Positions 2,588-8,444 of a DNA stretch of 64,000 bases are shown one piece after another. Position numbers and translations under genes: made by a program. The stretch covers positions 224,001 through 288,000 of the forward strand of contig CAVSPA010000007.1 of the NCBI GenBank assembly GCA_963729715.1, read 5' to 3'. Under the pieces are notes generated by a model. That model was not told the DNA's origin. It ran no database searches and saw only the letters and a program-made list of their open reading frames with translations. This stretch comes from an uncultured delta proteobacterium (lineage in GTDB: Bacteria; Desulfobacterota; Syntrophia; Syntrophales; UBA2185). Positions within the stretch are counted from its first letter, which is position 1. Each line of letters starts with the position of its first letter.

Positions 2588-2611
2588 TGGTGGGGATGAG
2601 GGGGATCGAAC
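2588..2611 (-). repeat. distal att site (duplicated tRNA-Ala 3' end)
   Basis: TGGTGGGGATGAGGGGGATCGAAC vs TGGTGGAGATGAGGGGGATCGAAC at 8369-8392. Confidence 0.92.
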
Positions 2612-2823: not shown

Positions 2824-3960
2824 TCATTGCCCATTAATGATGCGCGATGCCTGGTCAGGCAAAGTTATCATCCTGCTTGTCCTGTCCTTCACCTGATAAA
2901 TCACAATCTTATTCATGTTCGCAAAATCTAATACAACGGCAAGCAGATCACCGTTGGGAGAGACAGCTTGAGACCATATCAGTGTTGCGTGGAGATGTGT
3001 GATGCGCCGATGGTTTCCATCCGATGAATATTGGAAGAATTGCCCCCAATCGGCCGATCCGTCTGGCTTATAACCTTGTGCCTCAAAAATAAGGACTGAA
3101 CCGTCGGCACTCAATGTTGGTCCGCAGGAATATTCAGACCCCGCAACATAGTCTTTAAACTTTTTTTCGTAGTCAGGCATGATAATATACGGTCTAAGCT
3201 CTTTTTCGTTTCCATGCATTACGTAGATTTGGTTCCCTTTGTACTTTGATTTAAGGTCTTTATACATCATTTCGGTAGCTGCAGGGAGAACACCTGTAAA
3301 AGTTCCTGTATAAGAGAAGGGGGTATCACCCCAAAAAATGAATGTCTTGTCATCCGGAAAATAATATGGCTTTGACATCTGGTAAAATTTGAATTGAGTC
3401 AGACGAGTTTCCAAACCGGTTTCCACATCCACCTCATAGACGTCATAATCCGCAACTGGCGTGAGTCCGCTTGTTCTCTTCTTGTCTGCACGGGCGAAGA
3501 TAATCTTCCTGCCGGAGTGGGAAAAAGAGGGATACACCTTAAATCCTGTTGTATTTGTGATTTTCCTTACGTTCTTTCCGTCTGGATCCATGACGGCTAT
3601 CTGCCAATAACCGGGCTCCTGTTCATGTCCAGTGTGTGGTATTATTTGGAAAACGATACGTTTCCCATCGAAAGAATATTGTGCATGGCTCCATTCTTCT
3701 CCAATTGGTGATCGATAGGCGCTTAGCTCAGCAGTCTCCAGATCATACACATGAATCATCCATGGCCTGCCACCATGGCCGCGGTCAAAGAGAATCTTTT
3801 TGCCGTCAGGCGAAAAACTTATTCCTCTTATAAAATCCTGCTTTCCCTTATCCATAGTCGCACATCCTATATGTGTTGGTAAAAATAAAAAAGTAACGAG
3901 AACGAAACATAAAAAGCACGGCCTTTTATCAATTGATTTTTTCCTTTTGACTTTTCTCAT
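2824..3960 (-). CDS. TolB-like (PD40/WD40-like) beta-propeller lipoprotein
   Basis: Repeated FSPDGKKILF / YSFDGKRIVF / FSHSGRKIIF / VSPNGDLLA blades; basic N-terminus, hydrophobic stretch and HIGC lipobox-like motif; ATG 3960 preferred over GTG 3993. Confidence 0.85.
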   Translation of the reverse strand: MRKVKRKKSIDKRPCFLCFVLVTFLFLPTHIGCATMDKGKQDFIRGISFSPDGKKILFDRGHGGRPWMIHVYDLETAELSAYRSPIGEEWSHAQYSFDGKRIVFQIIPHTGHEQEPGYWQIAVMDPDGKNVRKITNTTGFKVYPSFSHSGRKIIFARADKKRTSGLTPVADYDVYEVDVETGLETRLTQFKFYQMSKPYYFPDDKTFIFWGDTPFSYTGTFTGVLPAATEMMYKDLKSKYKGNQIYVMHGNEKELRPYIIMPDYEKKFKDYVAGSEYSCGPTLSADGSVLIFEAQGYKPDGSADWGQFFQYSSDGNHRRITHLHATLIWSQAVSPNGDLLAVVLDFANMNKIVIYQVKDRTSRMITLPDQASRIINGQ

Positions 3961-3989
3961 GCCGCCATCCTTTGGAATATGCCTTCTTC

Positions 3990-4065
3990 TCACAAATACG
4001 CTGCACCGGTTTCCTCAGTGGAAAATTGTCTTAAACTCATCAAGTGATTTGGGCTTCTGTTTCAT
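3990..4065 (-). pseudogene. decayed N-terminus of an IS1595-family transposase
   Basis: MKQKPKSLDEF, then after a frameshift RQFSTEETGAAYL*, resembling the PxSLxEF..FSTEEAC..YL start of IS1595 transposases; lies just inside the inverted repeat. Confidence 0.6.
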
Positions 4066-4270
4066 ATGCGACAATACTACATCTTGTAGTCACTGGAGTA
4101 AAGTGCATACCCCAATTAAAAAAGTATTAGTCCAGGGGAAGGGTCTTCCCCTGGGTAGTCGTGTAAGAGCAAGAAATGTTTTAGCGTGATCCAGTTTCAT
4201 CCTTGACAATATAACGTTTGTATAATACATGAATGTTCAATATTATAAAAGTACAAAAGTGAGGACTGCG

Positions 4271-4537
4271 ATGAGAAGGCTGAAACAATACGGGATACAA
4301 CTGGAAGAGCAAGTTATCGTGCGGATCGATAGACTGGCGAAGAAACTAAATCAGCCAAGAAGTCTGGTAATGAGAAATTTAGTATTAGGCGGACTGAAAG
4401 ACATGGAATTTCTTCATAAGACCGGGATTATTGACGCAGTGGTTTTTTCTGATAAGATAATGAACAAGGTTAAGAGCGCATTATTAAAGGGGAAACTTGT
4501 ATTAGATGAAAATGACGAACTGAAAATAGAAAAATGA
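4271..4537 (+). CDS. ribbon-helix-helix (CopG-like) DNA-binding protein
   Basis: KQYGIQLEEQVIVRIDRLAKKLNQPRSLVMRNLV fits the RHH pattern; GAGGA RBS at 4261. Confidence 0.7.
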   Translation: MRRLKQYGIQLEEQVIVRIDRLAKKLNQPRSLVMRNLVLGGLKDMEFLHKTGIIDAVVFSDKIMNKVKSALLKGKLVLDENDELKIEK

Positions 4538-5263
4538 ATTAATATGCATTTTTTTCTTGACAGGTATAATGTATTGATATATAGGACTTTCAATATATCA
4601 TTTAACTTCACATTTATCATTTAACTACTCCCCGGCACAGCGGAACAACATGTTCGCCTAACGAAGAAATGAAGTTTTGCAGTTTATGATTTAACTACCT
4701 GGCGATAACGCTGCATGCCCGTAACCAGCAGTCAGATGCTTTCCCTAAAGATATGGCTGCCATGACATCCGGTGATAATTCATTTATTGCCTCAAGGGAA
4801 GTGCGTCCGGAATTTTTCATTCATGATAATTTTGGATGCTTGCAGTTGCGGGGAAGTGAAGGTCATTTTATTCCTTCATCCCGTTCGATGAATGTGCTCG
4901 ACCAGGCGTTTACGATCTCCACACGATCGCATGCTCCGGGAGCACGGCACATTAAAAATAATCTATTCACAAAACATTGTCACTGAAAGGACCCTTCCAG
5001 GGGAAAGCATTCTTGTTCCCTCTGAGGGGCAATTATCTTTCTCCTGGCCGATTGAACATTAACGAAGAAAGGAGAAAGAAAAATGGCTACACATTCTGCT
5101 TGGAAGAAAATCAGCGGAAAAGAACGAGAGAAGGTTTCAAGCCAGTTGAAGAAGCCTTCGAGGACATGAAAAAGCAAGATTGCATGATCATCGATGCAAT
5201 GGACATTAAAGATCTCACCAGTGTCATTCAATTTTAACATCTCAGAAACCTGAACAAACAAAA

Positions 5264-5627
5264 AAGTTAAACAGTACATCGTGAGGAGGATCATCCTCAC
5301 AGCGAGGCGGGATAGTGTGGAATCCCGATGAGCGCCTTTTATCATTTTAACTCGGATATCGTTTAACTTCGACGTGGCTGAACGAGAGTCACGAAACGGC
5401 GAAATCCGTTTCTTTGCTAACGCACGAAGGGCGGTACAAAGAGACGGATTTAAGGGTTGCTATTCACGTTGAGAAAACGACGGGGTCGTGGTCTCAGGAC
5501 GGCAATCAAACAACAAACCTCACATACATTTAACAATTTTTTCTTTCTCAGATTACAGGGTCTATAAGGCAGCAGCCATTCCTTTTGTTACGTATAGGAA
5601 AGGTTGTCAGTGGGACAACTATGCCTT
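5264..5627 (+). other. highly structured non-coding region upstream of the second recombinase (candidate ncRNA or ssDNA origin/oriT)
   Basis: At least 8 stems, several needing G-U pairs on the + strand (see findings). Confidence 0.45.
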
Positions 5628-5638
5628 GAGAGGTGCAC

Positions 5639-6670
5639 ATGAGAAATTTTGGGGTTGGAAAAAATCTGGATAATTTAATTGTTCGCAAGATCGCCGAGCA
5701 TGTATGTTCCGCGCGGGGTAACGGCACGGCATCGGAGAATAAGATTGTCTCCGCCTTAAAGGATTTCGCCGGCTTCCTCCGTTCCGAATACCAGATCAGA
5801 GACCTGCAAAAGGTGACCCAGGAACACTATAACGCATACGCCGATAATCTGAAGATGGAACTGGAGAACGGAGAAAAGGAATCGTCAACGACGTCAAGTT
5901 ATATCGCTTTGATCAACTCCATCTTCGAGGTTTACGGCAGTAGCAACCATATATCTGCAAAGGAATATGGAATCGCACGCGGACATCATTATGGCAATGT
6001 CGATAAATCCGCATCCGACGAGGTATATAAGGCTGTACTGAACGAACTCAGAGAGCGGTTCTCGGAAACAGACGATATAAAATACCGAGCACTCGCGCAT
6101 TCCATCACATTGCAAAGAGACGGCGGATTGCGGTTTCGGGAAAGCACGCAGATCAAGATCCACAATAATGACTTTACAGATAACACAGTATCTCTACAAC
6201 GTGGTGACGGCGTGAAGAACGGCCAGCCGCGCGAATTCCAGGTCCGGGATATCTCCGCATTTCTAAAAGCTCAAGAGTTTGTGCGTGCACATGCCCATTG
6301 GTTCGAAAGAGGTTCATTGATACCCTCGGACATGAACTACAATGAATATCGGGATTTTGCCTATAACACATTGCGCAGCATAAACGAGAGCATCGGATCT
6401 ACGCAGGGGTTTCATGCGTTCAGGCACTCGTTCGCCCATGAAAGCTATACTTCGAAATGGGAAGAAATGACAGGGCGTGAAGTAAAGTGTCCCGTTGAGG
6501 TTGGAAAGTTCGGCAATGAGTGGCGGGAATATGCGGCATCGGAAACTGGCCTCTCGAAAGAGGAAGTCAGAAAGCTGGACAAGGAAATACGTCTCGCCGT
6601 TGGCGAGGAACTTGGGCATCACCGAATCGACATCACGAATGCCTATCTCGGAGGCCATCATGGCAGGTAA
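5639..6670 (+). CDS. second tyrosine recombinase-family protein (Integrase_1-like, MRNFG-start type)
   Basis: Catalytic set intact: GLRFRE (R), VKNG (K), HAFRH, ELGH, NAYL (Y); no P4-type arm-binding domain; GAGAGG RBS. Confidence 0.85.
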   Translation: MRNFGVGKNLDNLIVRKIAEHVCSARGNGTASENKIVSALKDFAGFLRSEYQIRDLQKVTQEHYNAYADNLKMELENGEKESSTTSSYIALINSIFEVYGSSNHISAKEYGIARGHHYGNVDKSASDEVYKAVLNELRERFSETDDIKYRALAHSITLQRDGGLRFRESTQIKIHNNDFTDNTVSLQRGDGVKNGQPREFQVRDISAFLKAQEFVRAHAHWFERGSLIPSDMNYNEYRDFAYNTLRSINESIGSTQGFHAFRHSFAHESYTSKWEEMTGREVKCPVEVGKFGNEWREYAASETGLSKEEVRKLDKEIRLAVGEELGHHRIDITNAYLGGHHGR

Positions 6671-6703
6671 TGAGATGTTGATATTTGACTCGATGGAGGA
6701 AGC

Positions 6704-6931
6704 ATGCAAAAAAAAACAAATCAGCAGTTAAGCGACTTACCGCAAATAGGCTTACTAAGGCTCTCGCAAGTGCTTCTATTCATTCCCGTCTCTCCTTCAA
6801 CATGGTGGGCAGGATGTCGAGATGGCCGGTTTCCTAAACCTATTCGGTTATCAAAGCGCGTAACAGCGTGGAAGGCTGGAGATATTCGTGCATTGATCGA
6901 AGGACATACTGATTTTTCAGAAAAAGGATGA
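6704..6931 (+). CDS. alpA: AlpA-family transcriptional regulator / excisionase-like protein
   Basis: LLRLSQVL...VSPSTWW..CRDGRFPKPIRLSKRVTAWKAGDI; GGAGG RBS. Confidence 0.88.
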   Translation: MQKKTNQQLSDLPQIGLLRLSQVLLFIPVSPSTWWAGCRDGRFPKPIRLSKRVTAWKAGDIRALIEGHTDFSEKG

Positions 6932-6969: not shown

Positions 6970-8187
6970 TTATCCCTTCACCGCCTTGAACGGTACCACC
7001 ACGGCCCCGGCCTTCAACCCGTCCAGATAATCAGCCCACGTCTGCATCATCTTCCGGCGTTTGGCAAGGTGGGCAGTCCGATTGTAGGCCCGTCCGTTCG
7101 GATCTCTCACAGCATGTGCCAGCTGATGTTCTATGTAGTCCGGCCTCACCTGCAGGACTTCATCAAGAATCGTTCGTGCCATTGCTCGGAATCCGTGCCC
7201 GGTCATGGTGTCCTTGTAGTATCCCATGCGGCGCAGAGCAGCAAGTATTGCGTTATTGGACATTGGCCTTGAAAATGATCGCGCTGAAGGGAATACATAG
7301 CGACCGGCACCTGTGAGGGGTTGCAGCTCTCGGAGAATTTCAACAGCCTGATGTGACAGGGGTACAAGGTGGGGCTCTTTCATTTTCATCTTGTGCGCCG
7401 GAATATTCCAAGCGGCTTCATCAAGGTCAATTTCCGCCCACTCTGCATGTCTCAGTTCCCCGGGACGGACAAAAAGCATCGGCGCAAGACGCAAAGCGCA
7501 CTTCACAACAAAATGCCCCTGGTAACCGTCTATGGCTCTCAGAAGGGGCGCCACTTCTTTGGGATCGGTTATCGCTGCATGGTGTCTTTCATTTGGTTGT
7601 GGCAATGCTCCTCTTAGATCGGCTACCGGGTCACGCTCTGCCCTTCCCGTAGCAACAGCATATCGGAAAATCTGACCAAGCAGGCCTCGCATCCTGTGCG
7701 CCGTTTCCAATGTCCCCCGGCTTTCGATTCGGCGTAAGACTGCCAGTAATTCAGGTGCCTTCAGTTTTTTGATCGGGCGTGTGCCAAGCCATGGGAATAA
7801 ATCTCGTTCCAAAGCACTTAAGAGTTTCTCGGCATATCCTGGCGTCCAGGTGGGAGTAAATTTTGTATGCCATTCACGGGTTATGACTTCGAACGTTTCT
7901 GTTTCCGAGGTCTCTGCCTGTTTCTGGGCCTTGCGGACGGCGCCGGGATCGATGCCGTGGGCTATCTGCCCTCGGGCTTCATCACGTCTTTGCCTGGCAT
8001 CGGCAAGGCTGATTTCAGGATAGGTCCCAAGGGCAAGCAGTTTTTCTTTTCCATCGAAACGATATTTCAGTCTAAAGTATTTCCCTCCCTGTGGAGTAAC
8101 CAAGAGGAAAAGACCGTCACCATCAAATAATTTTTTCTGCTTACCTGACGGCTTAGAAGTACGAATCTTTATGTCGCTCAGTGCCAT
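6970..8187 (-). CDS. int: P4-like tyrosine integrase
   Basis: Arm-binding N-terminus DGDGLFLLV...ALGTYPEISLADAR; VRPGELR, KMK, HGFR, QLAH, RAYN. Confidence 0.96.
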   Translation of the reverse strand: MALSDIKIRTSKPSGKQKKLFDGDGLFLLVTPQGGKYFRLKYRFDGKEKLLALGTYPEISLADARQRRDEARGQIAHGIDPGAVRKAQKQAETSETETFEVITREWHTKFTPTWTPGYAEKLLSALERDLFPWLGTRPIKKLKAPELLAVLRRIESRGTLETAHRMRGLLGQIFRYAVATGRAERDPVADLRGALPQPNERHHAAITDPKEVAPLLRAIDGYQGHFVVKCALRLAPMLFVRPGELRHAEWAEIDLDEAAWNIPAHKMKMKEPHLVPLSHQAVEILRELQPLTGAGRYVFPSARSFSRPMSNNAILAALRRMGYYKDTMTGHGFRAMARTILDEVLQVRPDYIEHQLAHAVRDPNGRAYNRTAHLAKRRKMMQTWADYLDGLKAGAVVVPFKAVKG

Positions 8188-8368: not shown

Positions 8369-8444
8369 TGGTGGAGATGAGGGGGATCGAACCCCTGACC
8401 TCGGCATTGCGAACGCCGCGCTCTCCCAGTTGAGCTACATCCCC
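8369..8444 (-). tRNA. tRNA-Ala(CGC)
   Basis: GGGGATGTAGCTCAACTGGGAGAGCGCGGCGTTCGCAATGCCGAGGTCAGGGGTTCGATCCCCCTCATCTCCACCA; 76 nt, anticodon CGC, G3:U70 pair, encoded CCA. Confidence 0.97.

Follow-up and report, generated by a model that had tools for sequence, protein, structure and literature searches.

The stretch 5264-5627 of the analyzed window (the whole 64,000-nucleotide stretch of DNA from an uncultured Syntrophales bacterium) is a composite of separate units and is best explained as the cis-acting half of an MpsA-type mobilization module on a small integrative mobilizable element. We propose, with a probability of about 0.7, that its part from about 5394 to 5545 is the origin of transfer (oriT) of a 5.8-kb tRNA-Ala island and lies inside a transcribed leader. 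The mobilization module itself is known, and the window most likely holds an MpsA-family variant of it, not a new RNA. A preliminary description had offered three readings of the stretch, namely a regulatory leader, a recombinase-associated RNA, and an oriT or single-strand origin; the presence of an MpsA-type relaxase homologue and the match to the IR3 core of Salmonella Genomic Island 1 (SGI1) argue for oriT, and the comparison with sgm-sRNA gave the recombinase-associated RNA no support. The coordinates of all features are given in Table 1.

Table 1. Features of the island and of the stretch 5264-5627 (window coordinates; PD, named in the preliminary description)
Feature	Position	Strand	Remarks
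att repeat, left island end	2588..2611	.	24-nt direct repeat, 96% identical to 8369-8392
Cargo gene, PD40/WD40-like propeller	2824..3993	-	between 51-nt inverted repeats
Ribbon-helix-helix (RHH) protein	4229..4537	+	PF01402, E 0.0046, under curated cut-off
Predicted sigma-70 promoter of leader	4557..4585	+	TTGACA, 17 nt, TATAGG
Tandem TATCATTTAACT boxes at predicted transcript start	4596..4626	+	third copy 4685-4696
Stem	5264-5272/5361-5369	+	outer enclosing stem; PD
Unit 1	5275..5370	+	hairpins 5281-5300 and 5308-5327, then boxes 5340-5352 and 5357-5368; kept in relatives
Stem	5281-5287/5294-5300	+	PD
Stem	5308-5313/5322-5327	+	PD
Stem	5373-5379/5387-5393	+	PD
Stem	5393-5399/5406-5412	+	alternative stem; PD
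Unit 2a, 15-bp hairpin, IR3 counterpart	5402..5451	+	core GTTTCT 5408-5413 / AGAGAC 5440-5445
Stem	5402-5416/5437-5451	+	15-bp hairpin; PD
Unit 2b	5455..5507	+	arm 5455-5461/5501-5507, then 5470-5474/5492-5496, cap 5477-5489; kept in 12 rows with G-T changes
Stem	5455-5461/5501-5507	+	overlooked in PD
Stem	5470-5474/5492-5496	+	PD
Stem	5477-5481/5485-5489	+	PD
Unit 2c	5508..5545	+	unpaired A/T-rich tract with CATTTAAC (5527-5534); CATTTAAC kept in L026
Stem	5566-5571/5622-5627	+	enclosing stem; PD
Unit 3	5572..5607	+	leader stem with variable loop, 31 nt before start codon; 78/78 and 48/51 cells paired
Stem	5572-5577/5602-5607	+	overlooked in PD
Stem	5603-5608/5614-5619	+	PD
MpsA-type (MOB_M) relaxase homologue, 343 aa	5639..6670	+	PF12835 above cut-off; residues R165, H259, R262, H263, Y336
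AlpA-type excisionase	6704..6931	+	PF05930, E 2.4e-8
P4-type integrase of island	6970..8187	-	PF13356, PF22022, PF00589
tRNA-Ala(CGC), integration site	8369..8444	-	holds att repeat 8369-8392

The gene 5639-6670, previously listed as a second recombinase, encodes, by sequence comparison, an MpsA homologue; MpsA is the SGI1 relaxase of the tyrosine-recombinase-like (MOB_M) type. Its product scores 25.1 bits against PF12835 (cut-off 23), which is treated as a relaxase-like signature on account of SGI1 MpsA (PMC10484663). The top match in the plasmid collection is a 321-aa protein of an SGI1-like record (L042:6366-7331; 32% identity, E 5e-38), which we call MpsA from its length, residue numbers, and gene order, not from its accession. 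This protein carries R162, H247, R250, H251, and Y319, as published for MpsA, and the window residues given in Table 1 align with them, so that R, H-x-x-R-H, and the C-terminal Y are all matched. The protein has a SAM-like domain at its N terminus and the fold of a tyrosine recombinase, and its predicted structure (pLDDT 89) matches XerH, XerA, an integron integrase, and Cre. Homologues of about 52% identity with altered catalytic residues, possibly inactive, were observed in L031, which lacks the upstream motif hairpin, and as P0019 and P0020; an ORF downstream of the relaxase gene in L033 (3161-4135) is Cas1-like by eye. No relaxase homologue was found in the viral contigs.

The stretch 5264-5627 sits between the att repeats of the island, which has the features of an integrative mobilizable element: att repeats, integrase, excisionase, and relaxase, with T4SS absent. 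The block 4131-6671 is conserved as a unit among relatives, those at 80-84% protein identity being Syntrophales MAGs, and is joined to differing excisionase/integrase genes at tRNA-Ala, tRNA-Glu, tRNA-Pro, tRNA-Leu, and tmRNA genes. Since one cassette stands beside different integrases, 5639-6670 is not the integrase of the island; together with its 1.1-kb leader it constitutes a portable cassette. The palindrome 4131-4154 marks the precise left boundary of this cassette in L017, L023, L025, L101, and L105, and has further copies on host contig C4. The same contig (C4:450025-452200, locus L083) carries a truncated second copy of the cassette, comprising the RHH gene and the leader up to window position 5504; this copy is joined to the 3' portion of a tRNA-Pro integrase gene, and its leader has an insertion bounded by a repeated palindrome. 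The junction at 5504, 59 nt after the core of the 15-bp hairpin, was considered as a nick mark and rejected, as it shares about 9 nt of microhomology with the joined integrase gene. The RHH gene is present in L017, L023, L025, and the C4 copy, and is missing from L019, L101, and L105. The propeller cargo gene of the island is flanked by 51-nt inverted repeats (2756-2806 and 4065-4115, 80% complementary) with a 12-nt direct repeat just outside, and gene and repeats are possibly a small transposed cassette. No complete conjugation helper was found in the host genome: the two profiles PF11130 and PF03135 detected no VirB4-type ATPase. Host contig C5 encodes a TrwB-like coupling protein; its locus (C5:745096-750407), which also contains an adjoining 976-aa ORF, relaxase-like by eye, and a small DNA-binding ORF, looks like another mobilizable element.

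All stem arms listed in the preliminary description are present at the coordinates given there, and none of 100 dinucleotide shuffles of the 364 nt folds as well. The z-scores are -3.74 and -4.68 for RNA of the + and - strands, respectively, and -5.65, the strongest of the three, for DNA of the + strand; thus, the + strand is not favored by folding energy. In 150-nt windows, the signal peaks at 5400-5549 (z -3.9 to -4.8), fades to little or nothing in 5475-5624 (z -0.2 to -1.9), and is gone over the gene. Pairing was then scored per cell in an alignment of 13 close relatives. Stems 5281/5300 (63/63 cells paired), 5308/5327 (54/54), 5470/5496 and 5477/5489 (59/60 each), the 15-bp stem 5402/5451 (176/176, with a 2-nt gap in one row), and the two additional stems 5455/5507 (84/84) and 5572/5607 (78/78) are kept. 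The outer stem 5264/5369 (71/81, one column broken in 6 of 9 rows), the 3' arm of which is one of the TATCRTTTAACT boxes, and stems 5566/5627 (68/78) and 5603/5619 (34/78) were dropped because their pairing breaks in relatives. The alternative stem 5393/5412, which is mutually exclusive with the 15-bp stem, needs a G-T pair in 8 of 10 rows. Thus, the claim of one multi-stem structure is not supported: the outer stems break, and the stretch divides into at least three units. The arm of unit 2b aligns to L026 with pair-preserving changes, and the following unpaired tract may be a binding or nick region.

Changes in the kept stems are of the G-T kind in 13 columns vs. A-C in 3 (nominal p 0.01, for non-independent columns and stems chosen on the + strand), which mildly supports the earlier suggestion of a single-stranded fold of the + strand and fits ssDNA and RNA equally. 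Covariation among the close relatives, named at the outset as a check, did not exceed that of shuffles: one pair changed on both sides, a count reached by 444 of 500 shuffles. This result and the break of three of the originally described stems are what chance folding in a conserved intergenic region would predict; however, none of 100 shuffles folds as well, variable columns number 17 of 108 in stems vs. 110 of 248 elsewhere, and the hairpin considered below is family-wide, and chance folding is largely refuted, with next to no probability left to it. Rfam, likewise proposed as a check, contains no match to 5264-5627 at its gathering thresholds, and its covariance models gave no hit in 4500-5800 at E up to 10, including int-alpA, EFASI, hammerhead, and other families as far as these belong to the 4227 models, and 20 related loci gave tRNA and RNAI matches only. 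Hammerhead-like words near 5326 and at 5379-5404 were rejected, as their core positions vary in relatives and Rfam gave no match.

The 15-bp hairpin of unit 2a links the stretch to SGI1. When placed on L042, the published SGI1 coordinates fit for P5, for the 125-bp oriT, and for the pair of 6-bp repeats that flank it, which identifies the GTCTCT/AGAGAC hairpin of L042 as IR3, the far hairpin of this oriT. The window has GTTTCT/AGAGAC, and the common form is GTHTCT...AGAGAC. Loss of one IR3 arm in SGI1 is reported to lower transfer 40-fold (PMC6414798). With thresholds that were fixed after the data were viewed, 21 of 33 family loci carry a motif hairpin of at least 11 bp in the 1200 nt that precede the gene; the background is 3 in 3300 shuffles and, in the host genome, 0.003 per 1200 nt. 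The loci fetched after the motif was first noted contain it in 10 of 18 cases, two of the ten being near kin of L043. The 12 regions that miss the exact motif include the close relatives L017 and L022, which have a changed core, L063 with the 3' arm only, L006, where by eye a GGAGAC variant and a long insert are seen, and loci with other genes preceding the relaxase. Homology of L021 is limited to the part from 5394 onward. Two contigs that both begin at 5399 (L015 and L016) presumably reflect an assembly overlap, not a biological end.

For the analysis of covariation across the family, one locus per lineage was taken, i.e., 14 of the 21 motif-positive loci. Pairs flanking the core are formed in 82.5% of cases vs. 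a mean of 51% and a maximum of 70% in 5000 arm permutations, the observed value being inflated because possession of a stem was the basis for selecting the set. In 4 of the 14 representatives, a single core position shows a mismatch or a wobble pair, and C-GNA-G loops, which would be stable in DNA, occur within the hairpin in 6 of the 14 lineages. The spacing between the cores ranges from 7 to 54 nt, and this variable spacer suggests that what is recognized is a folded stem and not a double-stranded palindrome of fixed layout. The same range bears on the reading of the inverted repeats as a double-stranded recombination site, either a resolvase site or a second integrase site, for a tyrosine recombinase: core sites of such enzymes have a short fixed spacer. 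The recombinase fold and the N-terminal SAM-like domain of the protein fit a recombination site, as does L017, where the gene lies beside tRNA-Pro and another integrase is absent; however, L017 looks like a deletion, the remaining informative loci have a separate integrase after the gene, and MpsA is required for transfer (PMC6414798). We give the recombination site very little probability.

In SGI1, oriT is described as acting in cis and lying outside the functional sgm-sRNA (PMC6414798, PMC9299015). Together with the 40-fold effect of IR3 loss, this favors DNA over RNA as the active form of the 15-bp stem. Against the oriT reading, pairwise alignment shows no significant likeness between 5394-5527 and the SGI1 oriT (37 of 500 shuffles reach the same score). 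In its favor, a model of 5394-5540, searched against 61 genomes, gave 9 matches spread over 5 of them, and 7 of these matches adjoin the relaxase gene. In a search that covered 21 of 24 loci (L024, L031, and L064 were omitted for size), the same model matched L026, whose relaxase is 59% identical, at E 1.5e-5, the second-best match being an unrelated A/T-rich hairpin; SGI1 IR3 was matched only at E 1.4. Also against the reading is the placement of the direct RYGAA repeat that coincides with the essential IR1. Its distance after the core is 60-61 nt in six gammaproteobacterial loci, SGI1 among them, and 39-49 nt in four further loci; the window has none at about 60 nt after the core and has a similar repeat 55 nt before it. 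None of 11 motif matches in viral contigs has an MpsA gene nearby; since about 11 are expected by chance, the viral result is uninformative. We found no description of the hairpin core as a family-wide motif in the literature, and the figures or supplements of PMC6414798, PMC9299015, PMC8409611, and bioRxiv 10.64898/2026.01.13.699239 may show it.

The leader of the relaxase gene would start at the sigma-70 promoter predicted at 4557-4585. Its TTGACA box is found at equal spacing in seven loci, with better -10 boxes in L017, L023, and L083; a promoter scanner run on the window listed 4574-4601 and not 4557-4585. Homology with L019, L091, L095, L097, L101, L103, and L105 begins at 4593-4595, whatever precedes. 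Pieces of metatranscriptome contigs (depth 2-9) cover the leader in four of four metatranscriptomes, and also the integrase and other places; these contigs carry no strand, ends, or level. A non-coding block of about 200 nt (4594-4800, 92-99% identical) sets out from the predicted transcript start, preceded by differing promoters, and is a candidate small RNA or shared leader; in L091, L095, L097, and L103 it adjoins HU/IHF-like genes, with hairpin and relaxase absent from the stretches seen, and it has no Rfam match. Further downstream, the hairpin unit 4994-5086 pairs with the Shine-Dalgarno sequence of a short ORF (5030-5045/5070-5085), and similar units are repeated before several small genes in L095, L097, and L103. 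The short ORF at 5084 was rejected as a conserved peptide: it has 7 to 28 codons in 10 copies, and the peptide is not kept. Unit 3, the stem of which has one column changed on both sides, is probably an mRNA leader feature, and its position corresponds to the sgm-sRNA region of SGI1.

The SGI1 system requires sgm-sRNA from the oriT-mpsA interval (PMC9299015), and a recombinase-associated RNA is therefore possible in the window. The main product of the region would then be an RNA, either a processed sgm-sRNA-like small RNA or a structured 5' leader controlling relaxase translation. In SGI1, a 650-700 nt transcript passes through oriT, and its 3' part is the essential RNA (PMC9299015); the window has a comparable predicted promoter about 1050 nt upstream, and both the excess of G-T over A-C changes and the pairing maintained in unit 3 around a variable loop are what a functional RNA would leave. 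However, likeness to the sgm core is absent in 5452-5638 and 5264-5393 (478 and 184 of 500 shuffles, respectively, score as high), the interval after the oriT-like part is about 130 nt vs. about 280 nt in SGI1, and the account in PMC9299015 places oriT outside the functional RNA. The CTTACC/CTCACC motif, found 57-95 nt before the start in seven proteobacterial loci, is also absent in the window. There is neither an Rfam match nor a + strand terminator in 5264-5627. We thus consider an RNA as the main product unlikely. The CTTACC/CTCACC motif was observed in L042, L043, L055, L058, L059, and L061-L063, near the mapped 3' end of sgm-sRNA, and it is absent in the window clade.

Unit 1 has a distribution of its own. 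Two copies of it, 75% identical, close a cluster on host contig C17 (C17:6000-22600, L086) that has internal duplications and contains ssb, two Gp3-like, ArdC-N, DUF6094, and SNF2 genes. Both copies precede a terminator-like hairpin and not a gene. The TATCRTTTAACT box has 15 matches in the host genome vs. 4 expected, 14 of them in three mobile regions, and the box tandem was identified in 6 of 301 genomes of the order, all from one genus; two tandem-box matches in viral contigs look unrelated and were set aside. In our analysis, the tandem-box unit reads best as an operator common to mobile elements, with the RHH protein as the candidate binder. Most likely, unit 1 serves as a control site bound by a protein or helps second-strand synthesis, a role it would share with leading-region genes. 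A neighboring reading takes the whole region, or unit 1, for a single-strand origin or for a promoter that works in single-stranded form once the DNA has entered the recipient. The set of ssb, ArdC-N, DUF6094, and SNF2 genes beside the C17 copies is typical of conjugative leading regions, the DNA folding z of -5.65 is the strongest, and the C-GNA-G loops in 6 of 14 lineages would suit a single strand. However, the C17 units stand before a terminator-like hairpin instead of a gene, tandem boxes also occur at a double-stranded promoter, as do the Reg576 operators of p576 (PMC6294495), and a single-strand origin leaves the family-wide hairpin unexplained. We regard it as quite improbable.

Known systems support the oriT reading to different degrees. 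The mobSGI1 module consists of promoter P5, ORF S022, oriT with IR3-IR2-IR1, sgm-sRNA, mpsA, and mpsB (PMC6414798, PMC9299015). The window resembles it in the MpsA homologue with aligned catalytic residues, in the long non-coding leader with a short Shine-Dalgarno-led ORF behind an upstream promoter (predicted in the window), and in the IR3-core hairpin upstream of the relaxase in equal orientation, a pairwise likeness that is not significant alone. Like SGI1, the island is flanked by att sites and has its own integrase and excisionase; unlike SGI1, it has no T4SS, rep, or activator genes, is 5.8 kb long, is inserted at tRNA-Ala, and has its relatives among Syntrophales MAGs. The hairpin lies 187 nt from the start codon vs. 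380 nt in SGI1, and the window has neither an IR1-type repeat at +60 nor likeness to the sgm core. Instead of mpsB, it has the RHH gene and the tandem TATCATTTAACT boxes. MpsB is reported to be essential in SGI1; a search with its profile gave no separate match in the island or the host genome. The profile does pick up the partner gene next to most other members of the family: it matched seven further plasmid loci (E 1e-28 to 8e-10) and gave weaker matches in L032-L036, L047, and L048. In the distant loci L032-L036 and L046-L048, an MpsB-like gene lies upstream of the relaxase gene, between it and the hairpin, an order opposite to that in SGI1. Both mpsB and the IR1 repeat at its expected place were looked for and are missing, so that the window does not belong to mobSGI1 in the strict sense; it is still an MpsA-family module.

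A relaxase without an MpsB partner has precedents in MobK of pIGRK and TcpM of pCW3 (PMC8152469), which by published description have no sequence relationship to MpsA. Like these and the chromosomal MOB_M elements, the window has a tyrosine-recombinase-like relaxase with an oriT (here a candidate) immediately before it and an integrase close by. For six well-studied species, a catalogue of the oriT regions that precede MOB_M relaxases is in print (bioRxiv 10.64898/2026.01.13.699239). SGI1-like islands at dusA/yicC keep a stem-loop structure in the oriT upstream of mpsA despite divergent sequence; their MpsA proteins are 64-93% identical to that of SGI1 and, as far as PMC8409611 describes them, all have mpsB, whereas the window protein is 32% identical and has none. 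The combination of an RHH gene with tandem boxes at mobile-element promoters is reminiscent of Reg576 of p576 (PMC6294495); the box sequence differs from the Reg576 operators, and binding of the window RHH protein to its boxes is putative.

Based on these comparisons, we propose the following course for mobilization of the island. AlpA and the integrase would excise it; the leader promoter would drive relaxase expression and is probably repressed by the RHH protein via the tandem boxes. The relaxase would bind the folded stem 5402-5451, as a hairpin or a cruciform, and nick one strand nearby, most likely 3' of the stem within 5452-5545, and the strand would be exported by the conjugation system of another element. 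A more general hypothesis is tentative, and doubtful when its parts are taken jointly: MpsA-type relaxases of several phyla would read a folded stem, i.e., the short duplex GTHTCT/AGAGAC formed when the arms pair, with any loop, like integron integrases on attC; the Syntrophales clade would do so without MpsB, from a portable 2.5-kb cassette (RHH gene, 1-kb leader, and relaxase) present in at least five integration modules; and the 3' part of the leader may yield a short RNA cofactor unlike sgm-sRNA.

MOB_M relaxases were reportedly first described from three examples. They are reported to be the commonest chromosomal relaxases in six surveyed species (bioRxiv 10.64898/2026.01.13.699239), and how MpsA initiates transfer is presented in PMC9299015 as still unexplained. 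With flanks that covary and a loop that is free to vary, the six-base-pair core retained between Salmonella and Syntrophales would provide a small, defined binding or nicking substrate for this question, and the version without MpsB a simpler model. The core hairpin may also serve to recognize such origins where the adjacent gene is annotated as "integrase." For the organisms themselves, the module suggests a route by which small islands may move among peat and sediment anaerobes.
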